A stretch of DNA of 64,000 nucleotides from a virus, in the IMG/VR virus record IMGVR_UViG_3300048591_000147, positions 1 to 64,000 of that record; one strand, written 5' to 3'. This document shows, in pieces, positions 2,910-55,054 of the stretch. The stretch's first letter is position 1. Every line of letters starts with the position of its first letter. A program made the position numbers and the translations under genes. The notes below the pieces were generated by a model. The model did no database searches, was not told the DNA's origin, and saw only the letters and a list, made by a program, of their open reading frames with translations.

Positions 2910-3179
2910 ATGAAACTAATTGATCTGATACAAGAACATAAAGACGAGAATAAAGACATAAGCAAGGCGCCACCACCAGATTCGGAGTGGATAACAACTG
3001 CGCAAGCCGCGAAGATGTTAGGTGTTACCATGTCTAGAATCAGACAAATGATAATGGATGGTCAGATTTCTTCAAAATCACCGATAAAGGGTAGACGAGA
3101 TAATCTAGTTTCTAGAAAAACCATAACAGCATTATCAAAGAAAGAAAGAAAACCAACCGGACGTCCAGAAGGCACCTAA
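2910..3179 (+). CDS. HTH DNA-binding protein (excisionase/MerR-like helix 'AQAAKMLGVTMSRIRQMIMDGQI')
   Basis: Helix-turn-helix pattern followed by a basic C-terminal tail. Confidence 0.45.
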   Translation: MKLIDLIQEHKDENKDISKAPPPDSEWITTAQAAKMLGVTMSRIRQMIMDGQISSKSPIKGRRDNLVSRKTITALSKKERKPTGRPEGT

Positions 3180-3401
3180 ATGATTAAAATACGTAGTGAT
3201 TTTGGAAATTTAAGTATTGACGAAGACACAATTGCATATTACAGTGTGTATGCTGATTTATCTGCCAAGAAATATACAATAACCTTTTATTTTAAGGAGA
3301 CTGGCAGTTCTATCAACACCACATTATCAACAGTAGATGAACTGGTAAAGATAATAAAAGCTATAGATTTTCAATCAACATTTAAAAGGAAAACATTATG
3401 A
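3180..3401 (+). CDS. Hypothetical protein (73 aa)
   Basis: ORF abutting the neighbouring genes. ATGA overlap with the downstream gene. Confidence 0.4.
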   Translation: MIKIRSDFGNLSIDEDTIAYYSVYADLSAKKYTITFYFKETGSSINTTLSTVDELVKIIKAIDFQSTFKRKTL

Positions 3402-6931: not shown

Positions 6932-7816
6932 TTATAATGGTGCGTATTGGCTGTAACTTCTAACGAATGCGTCTGAGTAGGGACACACAGCCGATCCCAT
7001 ATCAATTTGTGTAATATTCTTATACTCGTGATAAAAATCATCTATTAGCTTCTTCGCCACATATGAACAAGCGTATATCAAGACCGTGTTTTCGTTTCTA
7101 TCAAATTTATCTAATAGGTTTTTTATTTCGTCTTGGACTCTATCGCTTTCTTTCCAAACGTCATTATTGTTCAGCGTTTGTACATGAGAAAATGAAAAAT
7201 ATTTACGCATATTTATACAGTAATCTGGCCCAATCACGATCACATTACGTTTCTTGAATTGGTCAAAATACTTCTGCATTTCACCAGTTATACTAAGCCG
7301 CACGAATAGGAATCCATCACAGAGCTTCATCCCATTTAAATGTGGGTATATCTGCTCACTCATATAAGGTTTTTTGTATACTTGTGAAGATATACCAATA
7401 AAATATGGGGGGACTTTCTTTATGATAGGCATAAGATAATCGTCAACATATTTCTGTCCAGATTCGCCCCAGACCCAGTTATTACAATTGTACTCAGTTG
7501 GGGGGCGTGTTATTACACTGTTACCAGTATACGCTATTCGTAGCATAGGAATCCACTCACCGTCATTATATCTGGCAACCGAGAATGGCTTATGGTCTTG
7601 TAATTGGTTTAAAAAATGTGTGTTGATATTTGCTTGTAACACATTTACATTATAATTCTCCGTTAGTGGGAACTGTAATTTTTTAAATGAGAAAATCATA
7701 TCTTGGCAATAAAACTTTGGAGCCAGCGTATAAAGTCTTTGTAGACCTTGTGCCATTTTATTTTTGAATTGTTTGGAGTCTTCTATTGTTATTGATTTAT
7801 ACTGTTCATCTATCAT
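6932..7816 (-). CDS. Putative glycosyltransferase (single-domain, 294 aa)
   Basis: ~55% identical over ~220 aa to the C-terminal half of 7813..9777 ('ARYNDGEW.PML', 'KYFDQFKKRN(V/I)I(V/I)(I/V)GP', 'CSYVAKK(L/M)ID'). The domain class (GT-D/DUF1792-like?) is unverified. Confidence 0.45.
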   Translation of the reverse strand: MIDEQYKSITIEDSKQFKNKMAQGLQRLYTLAPKFYCQDMIFSFKKLQFPLTENYNVNVLQANINTHFLNQLQDHKPFSVARYNDGEWIPMLRIAYTGNSVITRPPTEYNCNNWVWGESGQKYVDDYLMPIIKKVPPYFIGISSQVYKKPYMSEQIYPHLNGMKLCDGFLFVRLSITGEMQKYFDQFKKRNVIVIGPDYCINMRKYFSFSHVQTLNNNDVWKESDRVQDEIKNLLDKFDRNENTVLIYACSYVAKKLIDDFYHEYKNITQIDMGSAVCPYSDAFVRSYSQYAPL

Positions 7817-9777
7817 AGTGGGGTAAATTTATGCCAAGGTCTTATATTTATGCCACAATATGCGCATAGTGCGGCACCTATATCGATCTGGGTGATCATT
7901 TTATACTCATGGTATAAAGCGTCGATCATTGTTTTGGCAACATACGAGCAGCAGTATAATACCACAGGACTGTCTATTTTATTTACATTGTTCTTAAGTT
8001 CATTATAGATTCTATCATGCTCATCCCATACGTTGTTGTTGGTAACAATATGAGTGAATTTAAAATATTTTGTCATCTTGCTCAGGTATTGAGGTCCAAC
8101 TATTATTATATTTCTTTTCTTGAATTGATCGAAATACTTAATCAGTTCACCATTGATACTTAACTTAGCCCACAACCCACCATCAACCAATTGTAAGTCC
8201 TTCAGATATGGCGTTATGAAACTCATCATATAAGGTTTTTGTAATACTTGGGACGCTATACCAATATAATATTTTGGCTTGCTCTTTATCACTGGTAACA
8301 TCCGCTCTTCGGCATATTTTTGCCCGGATTCATTTAATGTCCAATCTTTAAAATTGTATGGTGGGTGATTGGGTGGAACGCTGCTTGAAATGCCGGAATA
8401 TGATATTTTTAACATTGGTGACCACTCACCGTCATTATATCTGGCAAATGAAAATGGTATATTATTCTCTAAGTTATTGAGAAATAATTGATTAACATCA
8501 TTCTCCAGTGTTGTTATATTTGATGGTGTTATTAAAGGAAATTTGACCGTGCAATCATTGATAGTATACACACTATCTTCCGTGAAGAACTCAGGACATA
8601 CCAAGCGATATGCTTGTAAACCATCCTTTATCTGTTTCTTAATTTGATATGCTTTAGGATCTGCTCTTGATTCTAGATAATCAAATATTTTTTGTTGCTG
8701 CACGCCATAATCGAAACGCATAAATGAATGCGATTGAATGTTGGTAGACATTTGATGTAGCAGTTTACGATCAGCTTCTAACTTTTTAATTATATTGCAT
8801 GCTCTATCGACCTCATTATTCTTTATGATGAACATCATATCAGTAGTGTATTTGAACTGATTGTTACTGTTATGGATATCAGTTGTGATTAGCACTACAC
8901 CCTGCAATGCTGCTTCTATACCAAGAGGCCAGCCGTTGAATGCATCACCAGTCTCGGCGTTTATTAGAATGTCAACATGCTTATTATAGAATTCATCGAG
9001 TTCTACTTGTGCCTTCGGACTATAATTTGTTATATTGGCATCTGGGATACAATTACCAATGGATATAAATCTCACATTTAATGATGGAAAGGTCTTTTTA
9101 AATGTCGAGGCTATTTGACGATAACTATCACTTCCCTTACTGGCATTGTGCCCCATGTTAGAGAAGCAAACCGTCAGAGTCGATCTATTTAACTTTTTTT
9201 GTTGTGGCTTTTCATCTTTGTTTAAACATGTACTACCATAGCATGAGATATAGTTAGTGAAGCCATAATTACTCAACCATTTATCAGTCTTTTCTTGTGT
9301 GGAGATTATGTTGGCTTTTTTGTTTATTTTCAATATGTCTTCTTTGCCACCTAGCCCACCACCGGGATACAGATGAATGAACTGTTTTTCGTGCGGTACT
9401 TTAGTATATTCTTTGTTAAATTTTATGTAGTTTGACAAGAAAATGTGATATATTGTCTTATATGAATCTACGTTGAATTCGGTGCCAGTGGTGAAGAGAT
9501 AACTGAATGAACTTAGCCCATTGAATTTAGTACCATCTACCATTGTATTATACTTGTTCAAATGATTATATTGTGGATCAAATATTAGAATGTTGAAACT
9601 AGACAAATTGAAATACTTGGACATCTGTTCATAATCAACGTCATATGATATGTTGGCATAGGACTGTATCTTATTGACTAATATATCACAGTTACCACGA
9701 TCTATGAATGCTTTAGTCTCAGCAATGCGCCACTTTGCGTATTTTGATGGAAACAAAATATCTACTAATAGGTTCAT
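7813..9777 (-). CDS. Two-domain glycosyltransferase: GT-B/GT1-like N-terminal half plus the duplicated C-terminal domain shared with 6932..7816
   Basis: GT1-like 'ETGDAFNGWPLGIEAALQGVVLITTD' (E-x7-E region). The C-terminal 'ARYNDGEWSPML...' domain is paralogous to the neighbouring gene. Confidence 0.55.
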   Translation of the reverse strand: MNLLVDILFPSKYAKWRIAETKAFIDRGNCDILVNKIQSYANISYDVDYEQMSKYFNLSSFNILIFDPQYNHLNKYNTMVDGTKFNGLSSFSYLFTTGTEFNVDSYKTIYHIFLSNYIKFNKEYTKVPHEKQFIHLYPGGGLGGKEDILKINKKANIISTQEKTDKWLSNYGFTNYISCYGSTCLNKDEKPQQKKLNRSTLTVCFSNMGHNASKGSDSYRQIASTFKKTFPSLNVRFISIGNCIPDANITNYSPKAQVELDEFYNKHVDILINAETGDAFNGWPLGIEAALQGVVLITTDIHNSNNQFKYTTDMMFIIKNNEVDRACNIIKKLEADRKLLHQMSTNIQSHSFMRFDYGVQQQKIFDYLESRADPKAYQIKKQIKDGLQAYRLVCPEFFTEDSVYTINDCTVKFPLITPSNITTLENDVNQLFLNNLENNIPFSFARYNDGEWSPMLKISYSGISSSVPPNHPPYNFKDWTLNESGQKYAEERMLPVIKSKPKYYIGIASQVLQKPYMMSFITPYLKDLQLVDGGLWAKLSINGELIKYFDQFKKRNIIIVGPQYLSKMTKYFKFTHIVTNNNVWDEHDRIYNELKNNVNKIDSPVVLYCCSYVAKTMIDALYHEYKMITQIDIGAALCAYCGINIRPWHKFTPL

Positions 9778-10790
9778 GATTTAAATTTTTTGATGGCCGC
9801 ACAGATATAATTAATCTCAAAATCAGTTACATTACAGTGTAATGGAAAATTGATTATTCTGTCATATAAGTATGTGGCGTTATCATGGCCGTCAGCTATA
9901 GGTTTGTAATACTTGTTCGCCTCTATACCTATATCCCTAAATGCGTTTGGTGAGATGGGATTCTCGAATACTACTGGTAGATTACCATAGAAATTTCTGT
10001 CATTGAAATTGAATATTTTGACGTCTTTGTTATCGGTCAAGACCTCACAGTATTTTTTCTGCGCATTAAGATGCTTGTCAATGTCATAATTATCTATATG
10101 TTGTAAGATGAATGCGGCAGATACTTCGGATATCTTGAAGTTTGACGATTTTGGTTTGTGTATTCGGTTATAGTGAAAACCAAATCCACATATAGCCTGT
10201 AGTACTTCATACTCATCGGTGTCAACAACTAAAAATCCACCTTCTCCAAATCCAAATGTTTTAGTGTGATGTAGCGAACCAAATGATGCGTCACCCAATA
10301 AGCAAATGTTGACACCATCTTTATTACATGTTAGAAATGAAGATGCATTGTCATAGATTATGATTTTATCTTTGAATGTATTAATGTCAAAGTCCACTAC
10401 AGTACCAAATAGATTGGTTATTATGATACCATCGGCATCACCAACATCTTCTGGTCTAAGCGTGTATGTATTCAAATCTATATCGACAAGCCTAGTATTA
10501 GTTTCGTTTACTACACAACTTGGAAATGTAAACGATGGACTAACCCATTTCAATTTTCGTTTGTGTTTTGTTTCATAGTGGAATATTAGAGCGTGTAGCG
10601 CAGTGGTCCCATTCGATACGCACAATACCCTCTTGTTAGAAGGGCAATTAATCATTCTTTCTATTTGCTTTTCTAATAGGTCTTTGACTGGACCGTTATT
10701 TGTGAATTGGTTGTGGTCAGTGGATATCTTTAAATATTTCTGTACCAACTCGGAATCGATTGTTTTATGTTGAATATAGCTAATTTTCAT
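9774..10790 (-). CDS. DegT/DnrJ/EryC1/StrS-family PLP-dependent sugar aminotransferase
   Basis: 'GD..SFGSLHHTK...GEGG' (Schiff-base Lys region). 338 aa. Stop/start overlap with the GT gene. Confidence 0.65.
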   Translation of the reverse strand: MKISYIQHKTIDSELVQKYLKISTDHNQFTNNGPVKDLLEKQIERMINCPSNKRVLCVSNGTTALHALIFHYETKHKRKLKWVSPSFTFPSCVVNETNTRLVDIDLNTYTLRPEDVGDADGIIITNLFGTVVDFDINTFKDKIIIYDNASSFLTCNKDGVNICLLGDASFGSLHHTKTFGFGEGGFLVVDTDEYEVLQAICGFGFHYNRIHKPKSSNFKISEVSAAFILQHIDNYDIDKHLNAQKKYCEVLTDNKDVKIFNFNDRNFYGNLPVVFENPISPNAFRDIGIEANKYYKPIADGHDNATYLYDRIINFPLHCNVTDFEINYICAAIKKFKS

Positions 10791-31335: not shown

Positions 31336-31599
31336 ATGATGGGGAAGATTCGACTAGATTTGAAGATTACACAAAATTTAAACTGCGTGGTAATTGGCAG
31401 ATCAAAGAGGCACAACTCGCACGAGCATCTATTGATGACTGAACCATGCCCATATTGTTCTCGGGCAATTCTAATCGGGGACGGTTGGAGTATACATGCT
31501 CGCATCATAAAGTGCCCGCATTGTAGGAAAAAGATTTCATTACTGTGGGATGAAGATGGCTCTGGAGAAGGTTGGTTCTATTTTGAAAAGGAAGAGTAA
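31336..31599 (+). CDS. Zinc-ribbon protein (CPYC...CPHC)
   Basis: Two CxxC pairs. 87 aa. Confidence 0.45.
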   Translation: MMGKIRLDLKITQNLNCVVIGRSKRHNSHEHLLMTEPCPYCSRAILIGDGWSIHARIIKCPHCRKKISLLWDEDGSGEGWFYFEKEE

Positions 31600-32093
31600 T
31601 GAGATTAAATGAAGTGCATGATGAAGATGCCAAGGTCATATGCGGGTTTCCCGGAGTAGGAAAGACAACACTATATAAAGAATTGAAAGATACTAAAGCT
31701 AAAGTATTGGATTCTGATAGCAGTCAGTTCGACAAAAAAGAATTCCCCGACAATTATATAAAGCATATAAAAGAGTCTACCAAAAAGGGATACACTGTGT
31801 TAGCATCATCTCACGATGTTGTGAGAGATGCGTTAATACAGAACAAAATACCGTTTATTCTGGTTTACCCTTCGGCAGAATTGAAAGAAGAATACCTGAA
31901 ACGTTACGCTGATCGTGGAAGTCCTACCCCATTCATTACCTTATTAGAAAAGAATTGGGATAAATGGATTGGAGAGTGTGATTCAATTAAAAACGATTTA
32001 GTTAAAAAGATAAAGTTAAAAGCTGGCGAGTATATTTCACTGGACAAGATCAACGAAAAAGGTGATAATGATGGACGATCAAGCAAAAATTAA
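31599..32093 (+). CDS. P-loop NTPase / nucleotide kinase-like protein
   Basis: Walker A 'GFPGVGKTT'. 164 aa. Confidence 0.5.
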   Translation: MRLNEVHDEDAKVICGFPGVGKTTLYKELKDTKAKVLDSDSSQFDKKEFPDNYIKHIKESTKKGYTVLASSHDVVRDALIQNKIPFILVYPSAELKEEYLKRYADRGSPTPFITLLEKNWDKWIGECDSIKNDLVKKIKLKAGEYISLDKINEKGDNDGRSSKN

Positions 32094-33055: not shown

Positions 33056-33146
33056 AACTCGTTGTAACATTCAACTGGAAAGAATAAATCGCTACGAACG
33101 ATTTACGTGCAGGTTCGACTCCTGTCAACGGGGCCAGAATTAAGAA
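33056..33146 (+). tRNA. tRNA-Arg(ACG)-like with an atypical 5' region
   Basis: Acceptor ctcgttg/caacggg. Perfect anticodon stem aatcg/cgatt with loop ctACGaa. T arm gcagg-ttcgact-cctgt. Has 4 nt instead of 2 between acceptor and D stem. ~91 nt. Confidence 0.35.
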
Positions 33147-33409: not shown

Positions 33410-33417
33410 TATAAATA
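33410..33417 (+). promoter_or_regulatory. Late promoter motif TATAAATA upstream of the GIY-YIG gene
   Basis: Exact octamer ~20 nt upstream of the 33438 ATG. Confidence 0.4.
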
Positions 33418-33437: not shown

Positions 33438-34313
33438 ATGAAAGTTTATACCGTATATAAAACCACAAACATCGTAAATAACAAATATTATATCGGCGTA
33501 CATAAGACTGCCAATCCAAATGATGATTATCTTGGTTCTGGCACCGTCTTCAAGTTAGCAATCAAAAAATACGGAAAACAAAACTTCAAAAAAGAAGTTT
33601 TGTTTGTATTTGATGATTTAAAAGACGCATATGAAAAAGAATATGAATTAGTTAATGAAGCATTTGTAAAATGTGAAGATAATTATAACTTGCACATTGG
33701 TGGGTCTGGTGGATTAGCTTTTGAATACATCAACAATGATGTTGAATTTAGAAAAGCAAAGAATAGAAAAGCCCAAGCCGCCATGATAGCTACTGGATAT
33801 TATAAAACACCAGAACATAAAGCTAAAATGTCTGAGTTAAGGAAACAAGAATATAAAGAAGGTAAAAGAGTAGTTAATCCAGAATTTCCAAATGCTTTTA
33901 AAGGAAAGAAACATTCTGAAGAAACTTTAAGAAAAATGAGTGAGTCATCGAAAGGTGTAACTGCGGGGGAGAAAAATTCGCAGTTTGGCACTAGATGGTG
34001 TAATGATGGCGTGAATAATATCAAAATATCCAAGGGTGGGGAAATTCCAGAAGGCTACCACTTGGGTAAAGTTAAACTGGCTAAAGAGCAGCGCAAGCCG
34101 CGTATAGTAAAGTCACAAAAGAAACATGATAATTATGATTTTGGTGCACCAAGAAGAAAAGCTACAATAGAAGATATTAAAATTGCATTATTAAAACATG
34201 ATAAAAACATAAACGATGCGATGGTTAGTTTAGGATATAAAGCGAATAGTTCAGGCAACTCTAGATATAGATTTGAAAAGGTGTTAAAAGCACTTGACAT
34301 CAGCACTAAATAG
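33438..34313 (+). CDS. GIY-YIG homing endonuclease (Seg-like) with a C-terminal DNA-binding extension
   Basis: 'KVYTVYKTTNIVNNKYYIGVHKT' ... 'YNLHIGGSGG'. Confidence 0.7.
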   Translation: MKVYTVYKTTNIVNNKYYIGVHKTANPNDDYLGSGTVFKLAIKKYGKQNFKKEVLFVFDDLKDAYEKEYELVNEAFVKCEDNYNLHIGGSGGLAFEYINNDVEFRKAKNRKAQAAMIATGYYKTPEHKAKMSELRKQEYKEGKRVVNPEFPNAFKGKKHSEETLRKMSESSKGVTAGEKNSQFGTRWCNDGVNNIKISKGGEIPEGYHLGKVKLAKEQRKPRIVKSQKKHDNYDFGAPRRKATIEDIKIALLKHDKNINDAMVSLGYKANSSGNSRYRFEKVLKALDISTK

Positions 34314-34336
34314 AAGTATCATAGCAACATATCAAT

Positions 34337-34423
34337 TGGATCGTCACCCAGTGGACGAAGGTAGCGGGCTTTTAACCCGATTGCGAAAGCACAACGTGGG
34401 TTCGAATCCCACCGATCCAACCA
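34337..34423 (+). tRNA. Type-II-like tRNA gene (anticodon loop cuuuuaa; identity uncertain), copy 1
   Basis: Perfect acceptor tggatcg/cgatcca, T arm gtggg-ttcgaat-cccac, CCA encoded. Anticodon stem cggg/cccg. 15-nt variable arm. Confidence 0.5.
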
Positions 34424-34450
34424 TTTTATCCCTCCAAAAATAAAGCCGCC

Positions 34451-34843
34451 ATGCGCATAGTCATCGAAATTCCTGACGACCAAGTTCCACCATCCTTTAT
34501 TACGCCACTATACCCTTCCGGTTATGCCGAGGATAATTTACACGATCTATTAATAAATAATTCCGCATTACACATATTTGATAATAAGATGTTGATGACG
34601 ATATCACAGGATGTCGCAGACGATCATAAATTAGCATATAAAGATGCATGTGATGCTCATTTAGCATTCCTAAAACTCTTACAACAAAACATGAGAATAG
34701 AGTCAGGCGACTCTAAAGAGAAAGTTCTGATTGACGGCTTGACTGAGGTAGCGAAGGATTGGTATGATGGTTGTCCTAAGTCGATGAACTTTGTTTCAAG
34801 AACCCTTAAACTCCTTAAAACATATATGGGAAACCCAAAATGA
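34451..34843 (+). CDS. Hypothetical protein (130 aa)
   Basis: ORF with SD. Confidence 0.45.
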   Translation: MRIVIEIPDDQVPPSFITPLYPSGYAEDNLHDLLINNSALHIFDNKMLMTISQDVADDHKLAYKDACDAHLAFLKLLQQNMRIESGDSKEKVLIDGLTEVAKDWYDGCPKSMNFVSRTLKLLKTYMGNPK

Positions 34844-35034
34844 GTGCTGCATTACAAGTTGGAAAAGCCATTGATATTCTTTCAAAATATGAAGAAATCT
34901 CTATTGCTGCTGATCATGATGAAATTTATTTAGGTGTTGGGTATGAGAATACCGTTTCATTGGAAGATGAAACCGCTTTGAAAGAACTCGGTTTTCGAGA
35001 GAATAGTCACAATTATTGGCGCAAGTACATTTGA
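34840..35034 (+). CDS. Hypothetical protein (64 aa)
   Basis: ORF, overlapping start. Confidence 0.4.
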   Translation: MSAALQVGKAIDILSKYEEISIAADHDEIYLGVGYENTVSLEDETALKELGFRENSHNYWRKYI

Positions 35035-35085
35035 CAGTGGCCGAATGGTCAGGTAAGATACATCCACACTAAATAGGATACACCA

Positions 35086-35361
35086 ATGTTTTTCTTATCA
35101 GCGTTTTTGATATTCTTGACTGTAGTGTTTTTTATAGCGACTCTGAACTCGTACAAATACGATCTTGTCTATATGATATTAACAGTCGTCTTGCTAATAT
35201 CAAGTCTGATGGCTCTAGACATCGCTATGACAGAGCGGTCGTGCACAGTAACGTGGAATATGTCAAATACACCATCACAGTATACAATTCTAACGGGTTG
35301 TATGATTAAAGTAGATGGTAAATGGATTCCTGCTAGAAATTACAGGGCATTCACAGATTAA
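35086..35361 (+). CDS. 2-TM membrane protein with C-terminal 'KVDGKWIPARNY' domain, paralog of 35687..35977
   Basis: Two TM helices. The C-terminus aligns with 'KVNGVWMPDKHY'. Confidence 0.5.
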   Translation: MFFLSAFLIFLTVVFFIATLNSYKYDLVYMILTVVLLISSLMALDIAMTERSCTVTWNMSNTPSQYTILTGCMIKVDGKWIPARNYRAFTD

Positions 35362-35366
35362 TTTAA

Positions 35367-35479
35367 TGGATCGTCACCCAGTGGACGAAGGTAGCGGGCT
35401 CTTAAAATACTTTTACGAGAGTATTTTGAAACCCGATTGCGAAAGCACAACGTGGGTTCGAATCCCACCGATCCAACCA
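35367..35479 (+). tRNA. Copy 2 of the 34337 tRNA-like gene, carrying a 31-nt hairpin insertion in the anticodon loop
   Basis: Identical to copy 1 except that 'ctcttaaaatacttttacgagagtattttgaaa' replaces 'cttttaa'. The insert forms a 7-bp hairpin aaaatac/gtatttt. Confidence 0.45.
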
Positions 35480-35686: not shown

Positions 35687-35977
35687 ATGTTAATCTTGGG
35701 TTTAATTTGTATCATCGTTGGTGGTTATTTATTTCTATATAACGTTAATAACGAGTATAATAGCAGCATTCTCCCAGAGGTAATGGGCATAATTATGGTA
35801 TTTCTTGGAATGCTTTTTACCACTATTGGTGCTGATAAACAGCGCTGTTATGATAAATGGGAAGAGAGTAATATCGAATTTAAATACCAAGGTATGTGTA
35901 AAGTGAAAGTTAATGGTGTCTGGATGCCTGACAAACACTATCACGTATATGATAACAACCAGATTGAGGCAAAGTAA
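35687..35977 (+). CDS. 2-TM membrane protein, paralog of 35086..35361
   Basis: See 35086. Confidence 0.5.
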   Translation: MLILGLICIIVGGYLFLYNVNNEYNSSILPEVMGIIMVFLGMLFTTIGADKQRCYDKWEESNIEFKYQGMCKVKVNGVWMPDKHYHVYDNNQIEAK

Positions 35978-47536: not shown

Positions 47537-48187
47537 ATGTTTTATACGGTTTATAAAATAACAAACATAAAAAATAATATGGTTTATGTAGGTGTCCATA
47601 AAACACTTGATTTAAATGATAATTATTTTGGGTCTGGACAGTATCTACGTGCCGCTATCAAAAAGTATGGAATATCAATCTTCACAAAGAAGATATTAGC
47701 AGTATTTGATACTCCCGAAGAAATGTTTAACATGGAGCGAAAAATAGTAACTGAGGAATTTGTAAAATCTAAAAATACGTATAACCTTGGAATAGGTGGG
47801 TCTGGTGGTAATAGAGTAGGTAAAGATCATCATACCCATTCGCTCTCCAATATGACAAGCATGTCAGAAAAAGCAAAGGCATCTTGGAATGATGTGACTT
47901 CAAGGGGGGAGAGGGTGAAAAAGTTAGCTACCAGAAATAGTAAGCTACATAAAATTGGCATACTTAAAAGACCTGATTGGACAGGCAGAAAACATAAAGA
48001 AAGTACAAAGCAGAAAATTTCTGAGAAAAATTCTAAAAATAGAACTGGTGAAGCAAACCATAGATTTGGTAAATGCTGGATAACAGATGGTACGATAAAT
48101 CGATCCGTATGTAAGGAAGCGGAATTACCAGATGGTTGGAGATATGGTAGAGTAATGAAAACGAACATAGTTGACAACACTAAATAA
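47537..48187 (+). CDS. GIY-YIG homing endonuclease (Seg-like)
   Basis: 'MFYTVYKITNIKNNMVYVGVHKT' ... 'YNLGIGGSGG'. Confidence 0.7.
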   Translation: MFYTVYKITNIKNNMVYVGVHKTLDLNDNYFGSGQYLRAAIKKYGISIFTKKILAVFDTPEEMFNMERKIVTEEFVKSKNTYNLGIGGSGGNRVGKDHHTHSLSNMTSMSEKAKASWNDVTSRGERVKKLATRNSKLHKIGILKRPDWTGRKHKESTKQKISEKNSKNRTGEANHRFGKCWITDGTINRSVCKEAELPDGWRYGRVMKTNIVDNTK

Positions 48188-48411: not shown

Positions 48412-48433
48412 TATAATGTAATAAAAGATAAGT

Positions 48434-48512
48434 GAGCGGTTGGCGGAACGGTAGACGCAGATGGCCTAAAAAACTGTCTCCTTAGTGGTTCGAATCCACT
48501 ACAGGCTCACCA
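48434..48512 (+). tRNA. tRNA-Leu-like gene (Leu-type D arm 'GGCGGAACGGTAGACGC'); acceptor and anticodon arms imperfect
   Basis: T arm agtgg-ttcgaat-ccact. The 5' acceptor gagcggt pairs only 4/7 with the 3' strand. Possibly chimeric or a pseudogene. Confidence 0.3.
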
Positions 48513-48534
48513 GAATAATGTAATAGTATAATGG

Positions 48535-48653
48535 CATGTAGCTTAGAGGCAGAGCGAGTGACTGTGGAAGGAAACGTCAAGGCGTTGATCAGTTCGAATC
48601 TGATAACTTCAAAAGTAATCACTAGGTCGTAGGTTCGATCCCTACCTTGCCAG
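48535..48653 (+). tRNA. Over-length tRNA-like gene (119 nt) containing an internal extra T-arm-like hairpin
   Basis: Outer acceptor tggcatg/cttgcca (1 U.U). Terminal T arm gtagg-ttcgatc-cctac. Internal 'atcag-ttcgaat-ctgat'. Confidence 0.3.
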
Positions 48654-48667
48654 CATAAAATTTAAAT

Positions 48668-48806
48668 GTCTCTTTGGCCGAGTGGACTATGGCAACAGGC
48701 TGTGGGTGTAAGAGTAAAGGCTCTGATCAGTTCGAATCTGAAATCACCGAAAGTAACCTGTCAGATGAAAATCTAATCACTGGTTCGAATCCAGTAGGGG
48801 ACTCCA
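48668..48806 (+). tRNA. Over-length tRNA-like gene (139 nt), Ser-type D loop 'GGCCGAGTGG', containing an internal extra T-arm-like hairpin
   Basis: Outer acceptor gtctctt/aggggac (two G.U) plus T plus CCA. Terminal T arm actgg-ttcgaat-ccagt. 'acagg' and 'cctgt' sit ~70 nt apart. The internal 'tgatcagttcgaatctga' duplicates the one in 48535..48653. Confidence 0.3.
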
Positions 48807-48861: not shown

Positions 48862-49767
48862 ATGAAAAATAACATAACAAACGATATTGAGCTTTTCAAG
48901 CAGATAGTTCTTAAAAGTAAGAGCATAAGACAGGTTTTAAAATTTTTTAACATCTCATCAAATTCTGCTAGATATTTTACAGCCTTCCATGATCTCGTTA
49001 AATTATATGACATTGATATAAATCATTTCATTGCTTATAAAAGACTAATTGTACCAACAGACTTCGATTGGGGGCGGGTTAACTCTATAAAAGATGCCGC
49101 AGAACAATTAAAATTGATCGAACCGGAAGCCAAGCTATGTTCAACGTGGTATGGAAAAATTAAACAATACATTAACAATAATAATGTTGATGTGTCACAC
49201 TTCAACTACAATGGCAGATATAGAAATTTAAATAGAAGATATAATCATGATGATATCTTCATAGAAGACTCCATGGTATCTAAACAAACATTAAAGGCAA
49301 GATATTCAGCGCTGCGTTCAGACAATATCAGATGTGATATGAGCGATTGCATCATATCCGATAATTGGTTAGGTCGTCAGATCACATTACATCTGGACCA
49401 TATTGATGGTAATAATAGAAATAATTGTTTAACAAATTTACGCTTCTTGTGCCCGAACTGTCACAGCCAAACGTCCACATATGCTGGAAGAAACTTAAAG
49501 TTACACTCTAAAAAGCCAGAATATAAAAGAAAATACGTACCAAAACCAAAAAAGCAAAAAACTGAAAATATTATACCGCGTGAGAAGTACAAAAGGCCAG
49601 AACAGTTCACCGTAGATAAAGATGCGTTACAATCATTGATCATGACTAATTCCATGGTGGAGGTTGCAAAACTCTTCAAAGTGTCGGATAATGCGATTAG
49701 AAAGAGATGCAAGAAATTGGGCATTGATTTGTCGCTTTCTAAAAATAAAAGGACTTCAAAAATATGA
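48862..49767 (+). CDS. HNH homing endonuclease (Mob-like) with a C-terminal HTH
   Basis: 'HLDHIDGNNRNNCLTNLRFLCPNCH'. Paralog of 20008..20736. Confidence 0.65.
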   Translation: MKNNITNDIELFKQIVLKSKSIRQVLKFFNISSNSARYFTAFHDLVKLYDIDINHFIAYKRLIVPTDFDWGRVNSIKDAAEQLKLIEPEAKLCSTWYGKIKQYINNNNVDVSHFNYNGRYRNLNRRYNHDDIFIEDSMVSKQTLKARYSALRSDNIRCDMSDCIISDNWLGRQITLHLDHIDGNNRNNCLTNLRFLCPNCHSQTSTYAGRNLKLHSKKPEYKRKYVPKPKKQKTENIIPREKYKRPEQFTVDKDALQSLIMTNSMVEVAKLFKVSDNAIRKRCKKLGIDLSLSKNKRTSKI

Positions 49768-54979: not shown

Positions 54980-55054
54980 GCCCATTTAGCTCAGAGAAAG
55001 AGCAGCGATAGCGTATAGCGGCGAGCGCGGGTTCAAGTCCCGTAGTGGGCTCCA
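54980..55054 (+). tRNA. tRNA-like gene (acceptor gcccatt/agtgggc, D arm gctc/gagc, T arm gcggg-ttcaagt-cccgt, CCA); anticodon arm not foldable by eye
   Basis: 75 nt. The region 'gcgatagcgtatagcgg' lacks complementarity. Confidence 0.35.

Follow-up and report, generated by a model that had tools for sequence, protein, structure and literature searches.

A conserved 26-nt hairpin insert in the anticodon loop of a jumbo-phage long-variable-arm tRNA-Lys gene, a candidate for removal by protein enzymes

How a functional tRNA might be made from a gene whose anticodon loop is interrupted by a hairpin is the question raised by a pair of tRNA genes in the window, the 64-kb stretch analyzed here of the 315-kb genome of an uncultured jumbo phage. 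To our knowledge, the only tRNA introns that bacteria and viruses are thought to have are self-splicing ones of group I, and short, protein-dependent tRNA introns are regarded as an archaeal and eukaryotic trait.

Both genes lie on the + strand, at the positions given for them in the preliminary description. Copy 1 (34337..34423, 87 nt) is uninterrupted and possesses a U1-A72 pair, the discriminator base A73, an encoded CCA, and the anticodon UUU at positions 34371-34373; it is called as tRNA-Lys(UUU) by ARAGORN and scores 49.8 bits with the RF00005 model. Copy 2 (35367..35479, 113 nt) is not called by ARAGORN at its default settings, but is recovered by RF00005 at 35.6 bits, the interruption being placed in the anticodon loop as a 28-nt local insert; both scores lie above the gathering threshold of 29 bits. 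Because standard annotation misses interrupted tRNA genes, phage tRNA repertoires are undercounted. The 5′ exon of copy 2 (35367..35403) ends in the loop bases CUCUU, which contain the anticodon CUU at 35401-35403, and is followed by the 26-nt intervening sequence AAAATACTTTTACGAGAGTATTTTGA (35404..35429) and by a 50-nt 3′ exon (35430..35479). The latter is the same as in copy 1, and supplies A37, A38, the 3′ strand of the anticodon stem, the variable arm, the T arm, the 3′ strand of the acceptor stem, A73, and CCA. The two genes had been described as identical except at one site; their first 34 nt and last 50 nt are indeed identical and the insert is single and clean, but the wobble base (position 34) additionally carries a T-to-C change at 35401, and there is no other difference. 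The repeated unit is exactly the tRNA including its encoded CCA, and the sequences outside both copies are unrelated.

The earlier assignment of the pair to a type-II scaffold is borne out by a 15-nt variable arm, UUGCGAAAGCACAAC, which forms a 3-bp stem and a GAAA loop and thus has both the length (>10 nt) and the stem-loop of class II. Across related genes, this stem covaries from UA to GU. Bacterial class II tRNAs have anticodons for Leu, Ser, or Tyr (or Sec), a set to which UUU and CUU do not belong, so that both copies are non-standard class II tRNAs, as in phiCbK. The anticodon had initially been considered ambiguous in such a scaffold, a doubt that is resolved by the recurrence of long-arm tRNA-Lys genes with UUU and CUU anticodons in phiCbK-like, Ruegeria, and IMG/VR phages. 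Recognition by the E. coli LysRS depends on U35/U36 of the anticodon and on the discriminator A73. The two copies have UUU or CUU together with A73; a long arm combined with A73 might also make them substrates of LeuRS or TyrRS. There is about an even chance that the two genes encode the UUU and CUU isoacceptors of a phage-specific long-arm tRNA-Lys, whose presumed charging with lysine is read from these identity elements; AAA and AAG together account for 7.6% of the codons in the window.

The dimensions of the insert differ from those first reported, a 31-nt insertion forming a perfect 7-bp hairpin. The anticodon loop measures 33 nt in copy 2 and 7 nt in copy 1, giving a net insert of 26 nt, and the hairpin has 10-12 bp closed by a UACG tetraloop; in the RNAfold prediction, 35404-35413 pair with 35418-35427 around the loop 35414-35417. 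The insert lies in the 3′ half of the anticodon loop, which in copy 2 starts CUCUUAA (five exon bases plus two), and MAFFT places the gap as CTYTT|insert|AA. Because of A runs, the exact junction is fixed only to the interval from 36/37 to 38/39, up to 2 nt further 3′. In the predicted fold, the insert pairs both with itself and with the anticodon, generating a long, AU-rich anticodon-arm hairpin. Its helix measures 12 bp in copy 2 but reaches 18-19 bp in related phages, whose UUU versions contain a single bulged C32: in both the minimum-free-energy (MFE) and the centroid folds, copy 2 has a 3×2 internal loop, and the versions from two related lineages, L040 and L042, have a continuous helix interrupted by the single bulged C32. 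The T-to-C change in copy 2 weakens this helix, yet creates the missing CUU anticodon. At 12 bp and 18-19 bp, the helices have the length of about one to two turns that is required of an RNase III substrate.

Several familiar kinds of element were considered for the insert and rejected. It is not a dispersed repeat or miniature mobile element, as its sequence occurs once in the window (0.01 chance matches expected), nor an intrinsic terminator, as the terminator scan raises no flag and the U run belongs to the stem. A group I intron would need about 200 nt or more, compared with 26 nt here, and there is no catalytic core; the only Rfam family found at E≤1 is tRNA. Likewise, no known ribozyme or other Rfam family was found in the 26-nt insert or in the 50-nt inserts discussed below. 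The two 3-nt bulges and 4-bp helix of an archaeal bulge-helix-bulge intron are absent from the MFE and centroid folds.

Nearly the same insert, of 26-27 nt, occupies the same loop site in four related metagenomic lineages (L029, L040/41, L042/43, and L049), on contigs whose neighboring proteins are just 53-74% identical to those of the window. In pairwise comparisons, the inserts differ at 0-4 of 26-27 nt and the exons at 3-15 of 87 nt; between L042 and L049, the insert shows 0 of 26 differences and the exons 10 of 87. The insert thus diverges no faster than the tRNA exons. The site is also polymorphic: L042 carries the insert in the tRNA that follows the orthologous endonuclease gene, whereas the corresponding gene of the window, which shares its upstream flank and promoter, has a perfect 7-nt loop. 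Furthermore, the carrier differs by genome, being the CUU gene in the window and the UUU gene in L040 and L049. Base pairs of the acceptor (1-72), anticodon, and T stems change in a compensatory manner among the tRNA bodies of the insert-bearing genes. Over seven related genes, 95.5% of cells are paired, compensatory changes occur in every tRNA helix, and no shuffle reaches the covariation score; in the same analysis, the insert helix shows no double compensatory changes. Conservation of the insert hence appears to act at the level of its sequence, which could equally reflect recognition by a protein, a role at the DNA level, or recent horizontal spread.

Judged from these alignments, the insert appears to be under clear purifying selection, and is neither junk nor a recent accident. 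Among the readings offered in the preliminary description (a mini-intron, a disabled pseudo-tRNA, or a regulatory mimic), the comparative data favor the first. The second is rejected, as four diverged lineages keep the cloverleaf by compensatory changes and the exons are no better conserved than the insert.

A structured RNA that does not decode would also require that tRNA body and insert both be constrained, and conservation by sequence rather than by covariation is what a protein-binding site would be expected to show. These observations raise the possibility, which we regard as unlikely, that the insert is never removed and that the 113-nt tRNA-shaped RNA works as such with its anticodon buried, for instance as a nuclease decoy. 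Both PrrC and PARIS are anticodon nucleases that have tRNA-Lys as their target. The RNA could be a sponge for a host anticodon nuclease of this specificity, or the binding partner of a phage or host protein. In L042, ordinary tRNA-Lys genes for UUU and CUU coexist with the insert-bearing gene, which is therefore not needed for decoding there, and tRNA-Lys is a documented target of anticodon nucleases (PMC2610378). A decoy, however, should display its anticodon loop to the nuclease, and here the helix hides it. The anticodon would moreover be irrelevant to such an RNA, yet in the window, L040, and L049 alike the locus pairs a UUU gene with a CUU gene, and the T-to-C change in the window creates CUU at the expense of the helix. 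Precise loss of the insert also yields a fully normal tRNA gene.

The surroundings of the two copies bear on how the pair arose. Immediately upstream of copy 1, the uninterrupted one, lies a gene for a free-standing Seg-like GIY-YIG/NUMOD3 homing endonuclease (33438..34313, +; Pfam NUMOD3 and GIY-YIG; PHROG 314, E=1.4e-45). Its L042 orthologue is collinear, with 83% nucleotide identity, and is followed by the insert-bearing tRNA; at this locus, the endonuclease gene is absent from L029, L033, and L040. A near-consensus sigma-70-type promoter, TTGACA-17-TATCAT (34294..34322, +; 11/12 matches in the promoter scan), ends about 15 nt upstream of copy 1, and the same hexamers are intact before the insert-bearing L042 orthologue. 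A second sigma-70-like promoter, TTGACA-17-TAAGAT (35031..35059, +; 10/12), precedes ORF 35086 and probably also drives copy 2 by co-transcription.

Three small ORFs do lie between the copies (34451..35361, +; 130, 64, and 91 aa), as first described. None has a match in Pfam, and the third (91 aa, at 35086) is a predicted two-helix membrane protein. It had been suggested that they form a cassette gained or lost by recombination between the tRNA repeats. Comparison with related phages speaks against this: homologues of the intervening ORFs are found in the same order in L029, L033-36, L040, L042, and L044, whatever the type of the flanking tRNA. The homologues of ORFs 34451 and 35086 keep their order even where only one flanking tRNA, or an ordinary tRNA-Lys, exists; the middle ORF varies among relatives, and in one related lineage the site of copy 2 contains no tRNA. 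As the three genes are ancestral, the copies do not delimit a mobile cassette. The newcomer in the window lineage is a module of a homing endonuclease gene and a tRNA gene, situated just after a tRNA-Gly. This module would have been inserted upstream of the three ancestral genes, and the two tRNA bodies, now 100% identical, would then have been homogenized.

The tRNA-Lys gene is not the only interrupted tRNA gene in the window. With its intron option, ARAGORN identifies an ordinary-length tRNA-Asn(GUU) at 48532..48654 (+; RF00005, 50.2 bits), which contains a structured 50-nt insert (48566-48615) between U35 and U36, and a long-variable-arm tRNA at 48668..48806 (+; RF00005, 36.1 bits), in which the loop reads CUGU|50 nt|UAA (insert 48704-48753) and the anticodon becomes GUU after removal of the insert. 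In the ARAGORN structures, two helices of the latter insert show compensatory changes relative to that of the neighboring tRNA-Asn. The cluster holding these genes is preceded by a second Seg-like GIY-YIG homing endonuclease gene (47537..48184, +; PHROG 314, E=5.2e-42), and an HNH endonuclease gene (48862..49767, +; PHROG 10822, E=3e-40) follows directly downstream of the pair. Homologues of the 48532..48654 insert occur in L028 and in Agrobacterium phage Atu_ph07, where the related insert has 46-50 nt and lies in an unannotated tRNA-Asn (NC_042013, complement of about 323,904-324,023) with a predicted junction at CUGU|UAA. Since Atu_ph07 and its host are a pair in culture, splicing of this insert is directly checkable by RNA sequencing. 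Two explanations for the Asn inserts were rejected: by eye, hammerhead-like motifs lack the core, and the cuts predicted for processing of the tRNA-like inserts by RNase P or RNase Z miss the exon junctions.

The association of endonuclease genes with interrupted tRNA genes speaks for a role at the level of DNA, in which the insert would be a selfish or protective element. By disrupting the sequence that a homing endonuclease recognizes, for instance the one encoded by the adjacent Seg-like gene, it would make its carrier immune, and the interrupted gene would yield no useful RNA. In L042/43, 24 bp separate the Seg-like gene from the insert-bearing tRNA that follows it; in the window, the gene precedes copy 1, and the second Seg-like gene and the HNH gene flank the interrupted tRNA-Asn genes. 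Additionally, an identical insert shared by alleles with 10 of 87 exon differences is as expected after horizontal spread. In cyanophage psbA, a free-standing endonuclease targets the intron insertion site. Nonetheless, L029, L040/41, and L049 have the insert without an adjoining endonuclease gene, and the endonuclease of the window adjoins the uninterrupted copy. The acceptor, anticodon, and T stems of the insert-bearing genes also keep their pairing through compensatory changes, and a consensus promoter is retained, from which it follows that the RNA with the insert is under selection. An element that acts primarily at the level of DNA and spreads along with the endonuclease ("collaborative homing", in which the endonuclease would cut the uninterrupted allele at the insertion site) seems quite improbable; as such a role would be compatible with splicing, it is more a complement than a true rival.

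The position of the junction raises a further alternative. A cut after U35 that releases an insert ending in G would give copy 2 the loop CUCUAAA and the anticodon CUA, that is, a nonsense suppressor, and would give the relatives CUUUAAA and UUA. With its intron option, ARAGORN designates the genes of the relatives "tRNA-Stop(tta)", boundaries of the form U|...G| would agree with those of the Asn-type inserts, and large phages often carry suppressor tRNAs (Lak phage paper, bioRxiv 10.1101/356790). Conversely, the insert-less allele at the orthologous site reads CUUUUAA and not CUUUAAA, and the loop start of copy 2, CUCUUAA, matches the loops of the uninterrupted CUU genes of phiCbK, Ruegeria phage V10, L040, and L049. 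Under the standard code, the window is 86% coding, with 65 ORFs ending in TAA, 52 in TGA, and 11 in TAG. A suppressor function for copy 2 is therefore very hard to credit, and one for its relatives is equally remote.

The preferred reading is instead that copy 2 is a split gene, from whose transcript protein enzymes would remove the insert to give a mature 87-nt tRNA-Lys(CUU); we consider this about as probable as its opposite. In the proposed scheme, an RNase III-type enzyme would sever one strand of the helix after U36 and the opposite strand before A37, releasing a 26-nt hairpin with 2-nt 3′ overhangs and leaving ...CUCUU-OH and pAA... ends. An ATP-dependent anticodon-loop RNA ligase of the T4 Rnl1 kind would then join these ends, restoring a normal 7-nt loop. 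From the fold and the alignment, a staggered cut of this geometry, with 3′ overhangs of 2 nt, would excise precisely 26 nt, 5+2 bases of the loop being left behind; because the junction is ambiguous, this fit is one of three registers giving the same product. The 50-nt Asn inserts contain no long helix and cannot use this cut geometry, so that an RNase III route would not explain all of the inserts in this genome.

RNA ligase, RNase III, and splicing-endonuclease domains are all absent from the families listed for 97 window ORFs at E≤1e-4, which represent 64 of the 315 kb. ORF 31599-32093 (P-loop kinase-like) was considered as a polynucleotide kinase and rejected, its AAA_18/AAA_33 matches being weak and no solved structure giving an informative match. 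Jumbo phages commonly encode Rnl1, Rnl2, or RtcB ligases as well as polynucleotide kinases (reviewed in PMC7824862). It may tentatively be proposed that phages have a protein-dependent tRNA splicing of their own, in which RNase III of the host or phage cuts and a phage RNA ligase joins, although this broader idea is on balance unlikely. If true, the long-puzzling RNA repair enzymes of phages would also work in routine tRNA maturation, and the intron would hide the tRNA-Lys anticodon from host anticodon nucleases until processing.

In the phage collection, no relative was recovered with either the locus or 25 kb of the window, whether close or distant similarity was sought at the DNA level; a 654-aa window ORF gave no match at the protein level, and the downstream Y05C-like protein retrieved only itself. 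Exact and degenerate DNA patterns for the tRNA detected neither a copy nor an insert-bearing long-arm tRNA in IMG/VR, and a single metagenome scan detected five long-arm tRNA-Lys loci, all uninterrupted, the source contig not being among its matches. Insert patterns gave three chance matches in IMG/VR and GTDB genomes, all outside tRNAs. The literature searched for a mechanism or for phage long-arm tRNA-Lys yielded only the report on Lak phages discussed below.

Among known systems, the protein-spliced tRNA introns of archaea and eukaryotes are likewise short, located in the anticodon loop, and paired with part of the anticodon, and their canonical 37/38 position is compatible with the junction of copy 2. 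They differ in possessing a 3-4-3 bulge-helix-bulge, in place of which the phage RNAs have a continuous helix with one bulged C or a 3×2 internal loop. We know of no splicing endonuclease in bacteria or phages, and no EndA/Sen-family member is among the Pfam families listed for the 97 window ORFs at E≤1e-4. The group I introns of bacterial and phage tRNAs also split the anticodon loop and are often tied to homing endonucleases, but exceed 200 nt, compared with 26 nt here.

Closer in form are the intervening sequences of bacterial 23S rRNA, strain-variable AU-rich hairpins that are excised by RNase III. As here, an extra hairpin in the gene of a stable RNA would be cut at its base by a double-strand-specific nuclease; the 23S rRNA fragments, however, stay unligated, while the halves of a tRNA opened in its anticodon loop have to be sealed again. 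We are not aware of any tRNA that is described as losing an insert by an RNase III-type cut and religation. For the second step, ligation, phage T4 offers a counterpart: tRNA-Lys cleaved by PrrC is repaired there by Pnkp and Rnl1, so that a phage ligase seals an anticodon loop of the same substrate class. In T4, it is the host that attacks and breaks the tRNA, which has no insert, whereas cutting and joining would here be normal maturation, and T4 supplies the phage ligase, a domain not found among the families listed for the 97 window ORFs.

The scaffold is shared with the tRNA-Lys genes of phiCbK-like Caulobacter phages, Ruegeria phage V10, and IMG/VR contigs, which are 87-91 nt long, often occur as UUU and CUU pairs, and have in common a 3-bp D stem, a GCGAAAGC-type variable arm, and a GTGGGTTCGA T arm. 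These genes lack the insert, and their discriminator and acceptor sequences differ from those of the window.

The only precedent in the literature searched is the unexplained "enigmatic" short introns in tRNA genes of Lak megaphages (Devoto et al., bioRxiv 10.1101/356790). Compared by description, both are short, non-group-I insertions in tRNA genes of huge phages that are missed by bacterial tRNA finders, both are near-identical across diverged genomes, and in both, alleles with and without the insertion fix the point of excision; for the 26-27-nt insert, the corresponding observations are the 0-4 differences and the orthologous site that is occupied in L042 and empty in the window. Some Lak inserts are tRNA-like, as are the 50-nt Asn inserts of the window, and a mechanism is described for neither. 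The two differ in that Lak phages are Prevotella megaphages with an alternative genetic code, whereas the window phage has T4-like markers, and in that the gene interrupted here is a long-variable-arm tRNA-Lys with a simple 26-nt hairpin that zips up the anticodon. To the Lak introns, the window adds a very simple hairpin insert on which purifying selection appears to be clear, a set of alleles that defines the product of excision, and a specific enzymatic scheme open to testing with commercially available RNase III and T4 RNA ligase.

The two long-variable-arm tRNA-Lys genes occupy 34337-34423 (copy 1, 87 nt) and 35367-35479 (copy 2, 113 nt), as the preliminary description had placed them. 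ARAGORN calls copy 1 as tRNA-Lys(UUU), and the Rfam tRNA model gives 49.8 bits for copy 1 and 35.6 bits for copy 2, putting the extra bases of the latter in the anticodon loop. The copies match without a difference over 34 nt at the 5′ end and over 50 nt at the 3′ end, within flanks that are unrelated to each other, and the repeat unit is therefore exactly one tRNA gene, including its encoded CCA. The copies had been reported as identical except at one site; this holds for the shared ends, but besides the insert there is a T-to-C change at the wobble position, through which the loop of copy 2 starts CUCUUAA. The insert, found once in the window, measures 26 nt net rather than 31, and its hairpin is 10-12 bp rather than 7 bp, closed by a UACG tetraloop. 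Both copies possess a U1-A72 acceptor pair, A73, a 3-bp D stem, and a variable arm of 15 nt, in which a 3-bp stem carries a GAAA loop.

The UUU of copy 1 had been considered ambiguous in a type-II scaffold. The long arm is indeed odd-looking with a Lys anticodon, but the ambiguity is settled, as the pairing recurs in other phages: this scaffold underlies the neighbouring 88-nt and 91-nt tRNA-Lys genes (CUU and UUU) annotated in phiCbK-like Caulobacter phages, one tRNA-Lys of Ruegeria phage V10 is of the same long-arm type, and further examples lie on several IMG/VR and metagenome contigs. Copies 1 and 2 are accordingly best described as presumptive UUU and CUU isoacceptors of a phage-type tRNA-Lys, and from the anticodon and A73 we infer lysine charging of both. 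In the window ORFs, 7.6% of codons specify Lys. Long variable arms also occur, in several large phages, on tRNAs whose anticodons are those of Met, Asn and Cys (loci L004 5834-5920 and 6597-6684; L008 4451-4537; L009 12106-12194; L016 446-532 and 1767-1853), and phiKZ-like 'tRNA-Asn' genes align with the long-arm Lys scaffold. It appears that phages repeatedly combine class II scaffolds with anticodons other than those for Leu, Ser and Tyr.

The window belongs to a 315-kb contig from a JGI metagenome and holds T4-like markers, among them a gp15-like tail protein and Seg-type endonucleases. DNA searches and a protein search found no close relative among deposited phages; related metagenomic contigs were located with two neighbouring proteins as queries and then compared, their versions of the neighbouring proteins sharing only 53-74% identity with those of the window. 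Several HNH and GIY-YIG endonuclease genes are dispersed across the window. Pfam matches to DegT-type aminotransferase, hexapeptide transferase, PglD_N and R2K-clade ATP-grasp domains, listed without ORF assignment, suggest a sugar or amino-sugar modification cluster at about 9.7-15.9 kb (minus strand) and elsewhere, of which only ORF 9774-10790 was individually matched (PHROG aminotransferase).

Among the related contigs, the site directly 3′ of the ORF 35086 homologue, where copy 2 lies in the window, is a hotspot whose content varies by lineage. It holds a single ordinary 76-nt tRNA-Lys(UUU) in L033-39 and L044/45, ordinary UUU and CUU genes in L042/43, nothing in L046/47, and a long-arm tRNA-Lys(UUU) interrupted by 26-27 nt in L029 (where the gene is cut by the contig end), L040/41 and L049. 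Beyond this site, L040/41 and L049 bear an uninterrupted long-arm tRNA-Lys(CUU), adjoined in L040 by a tRNA-like gene (6934-7116) whose acceptor stem and T arm are good (GGGACTTA...TAAGTCCCCCA), with roughly 110 nt extra between them. Insertions a few genes past the tRNA-Lys in the L033-L036 clade, about 1.1-3 kb downstream, comprise a resolvase gene and an IS605 OrfB/TnpB (Cas12f-like) gene, a further sign that the region is a mobile-DNA hotspot. The head of the tRNA cluster retains, in all relatives, a 79-nt tRNA-Arg(ACG) that has additional bases where acceptor and D arm meet and scores low in Rfam (window 33058-33136, 32.6 bits; L029 10465-10543; L031 1379-1457; L042 3708-3786).

Alignment of the insert-bearing genes gives the insert consensus AAARTACTTTT(T)AYGAGAGTATTTTRA, with pairwise differences at 0-4 of 26-27 positions, as against 3-15 of 87 in the exons; between L042 and L049 the insert is identical and the exons differ at ten positions. 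Compensatory pairs occur between insert-bearing genes in the acceptor stem (U-A to G-C at 1-72), anticodon stem and T stem, and the D stem and variable arm also covary once uninterrupted genes are added. Of the cells in the seven-gene comparison, 95.5% are paired, and none of 500 shuffles reached the observed covariation score. Together, these changes exclude a dead gene, and with it the earlier suggestion that copy 2 is a disabled pseudo-tRNA. The insert itself is conserved at the sequence level and not by covariation, as might be expected of an unspliced tRNA-shaped RNA serving as a decoy or protein partner; this explanation is possible, and fits the presence of ordinary tRNA-Lys genes in L042 as well.

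The product that removal of the insert would give can be read from the region in which L042/43 and the window are collinear at 83% nucleotide identity, running from tRNA-Gly through the Seg-like endonuclease gene (33438-34313) to the 130-aa and 64-aa ORFs. Directly after the endonuclease gene, downstream of the same promoter-bearing flank, L042 has an insert-bearing UUU gene and the window has the uninterrupted copy 1; these alleles at an orthologous site define the excision product as a normal CUUUUAA loop. The insert junction is compatible with 36/37, 37/38 or 38/39. A suppressor tRNA with a CUA or UUA anticodon, which a different cut would yield, is at odds with the insert-less allele and with the normal use of stop codons in the window. 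A purely DNA-level role, in which the insert protects against the adjacent endonuclease, may account for its spread, but is weakened as a full explanation: some insert-bearing genes have no endonuclease nearby, that of the window adjoins the uninterrupted copy, and the RNA is under selection.

The mini-intron, one of the possibilities named in the preliminary description, is favoured by the conservation and by the precise insert-less allele, while removal is what we infer from them; an intron is the best-supported reading of the copy 2 insert, held with about even confidence. A group I intron is ruled out, the insert being only 26 nt and lacking an Rfam match, as is a bulge-helix-bulge intron by the fold, and the hairpin was not flagged in a terminator scan. 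In the fold of copy 2, the anticodon stem has 4 bp and is separated from a 12-bp helix by a 3x2 internal loop. The UUU versions form a continuous 18-19-bp helix with C32 as its only bulge, in which U33 to U36 pair with A38, A37 and the final two insert bases. The T-to-C change in the window weakens this helix and creates the CUU anticodon. In the window, L040 and L049 alike, the locus has one UUU and one CUU long-arm gene, whichever bears the insert; this pairing and the creation of CUU are evidence that the insert-bearing gene is used for decoding.

For the removal of such an intron, RNase III followed by a ligase is a specific and testable guess, though a rather improbable one. RNase III cuts helices of such length and leaves 2-nt 3′ overhangs. 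A cut of this type, with the two strands severed 3′ of U36 and 5′ of A37, would have exactly a 2-nt 3′ stagger and free a 26-nt hairpin of 10 bp with its tetraloop and a 2-nt overhang; the CUNUU-OH and pAA left behind would form a 7-nt loop after joining. The halves could be joined by an ATP-dependent ligase of the T4 Rnl1 kind, to which RNase III ends (3′-OH, 5′-P) would be suited, and the natural substrate of these ligases is a broken tRNA-Lys anticodon loop. Such ligases are commonly encoded by jumbo phages (PMC7824862); none was found among the 97 ORFs of the window, which represents about one fifth of the genome. About 1 kb upstream of the tRNA cluster, a small P-loop protein (31599-32093; GFPGVGKTT) with weak matches to AAA_18, AAA_33 and KTI12, and with a match to PHROG 4182 (E=7e-56), might be a nucleotide or polynucleotide kinase.

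The two copies had also been taken to flank a mobile cassette of three small ORFs (34451-35361). This must be rejected, since the outer two ORFs have homologues in the same order in relatives with different flanking tRNAs: L029 lacks the upstream tRNA, and L033, L042 and L044 have an ordinary tRNA downstream. The middle ORF is variable: some relatives encode 64 aa there, others a 126-aa membrane protein. Compared with L029, the window shows a gain that begins where tRNA-Gly ends and runs through copy 1, and so comprises the endonuclease gene and a tRNA. The exons of copies 1 and 2 are 100% identical, whereas copy 2 differs at nine exon positions from the L042 gene at the copy 1 position, which indicates that the copies were homogenised recently. 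The gene pair most plausibly represents a tRNA module, linked to a homing endonuclease, beside resident genes, and not the recombination sites of a mobile cassette. About 20 nt upstream of the Seg-like start codon, in both the window (about 33410-33417) and L042, a TATAAATA motif fits the consensus of T4 late promoters. Distant paralogy (21% identity) links the ORF immediately preceding copy 2 (35086-35361) to the second ORF after it (35687-35977); they encode small proteins with two predicted membrane helices each and a common tail, C...W..SN....Y....C..K....W.P...Y.

With intron detection on, ARAGORN identified two further interrupted genes in the window, both with Rfam support and both missed by default ARAGORN: an ordinary tRNA-Asn(GUU) (48532-48654) and a long-arm tRNA that reads GUU after removal (48668-48806), each with a 50-nt insert between U35 and U36. 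These inserts are homologous and structured, with a common T-arm-like hairpin (TCAG TTCGAAT CTGA), an AAGG motif, compensatory differences in two helices, and an end in ...AAAG ahead of UAA. This cluster is flanked by an HNH gene and by the second Seg-like gene of the window. Three genes outside the window have homologous inserts of 46-49 nt at the same position of the loop. One is a tRNA-Asn, unannotated, of Agrobacterium phage Atu_ph07 (NC_042013; locus L026, 2996-3115), a cultured jumbo phage that offers an experimentally tractable system; the others are a tRNA-Lys(UUU) and a tRNA-Asn of the 208-kb IMG/VR contig L028 (3279-3404 and 3560-3682). Two odd tRNA-like stretches were also seen in the window, one at 48425-48510 with a good T arm, a loop that contains CCTAAAA and the ending GCTCACCA (only 16.7 bits), and one at 54980-55051 (40.6 bits in Rfam, no ARAGORN call). 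In two neighbouring tRNA genes of the IMG/VR contig L006 (minus strand, 3155-3374), it is the D loop and not the anticodon loop that holds insertions, of about 27-37 nt (GTAGCTCAG[...]GGTAGAGC).

The copy 2 insert is real and not ordinary. What is new is a hairpin-type insert in a long-arm tRNA-Lys; short non-self-splicing inserts in huge-phage tRNA genes are known, if barely described. Literature searches found no mechanism for such inserts and a single precedent, the highly conserved 'enigmatic' tRNA introns of Lak megaphages, presented with no mechanism (Devoto et al., bioRxiv 10.1101/356790). The Lak introns and the inserts described here are both conserved short tRNA insertions in huge phages, and some of those in Lak are themselves tRNA-like.
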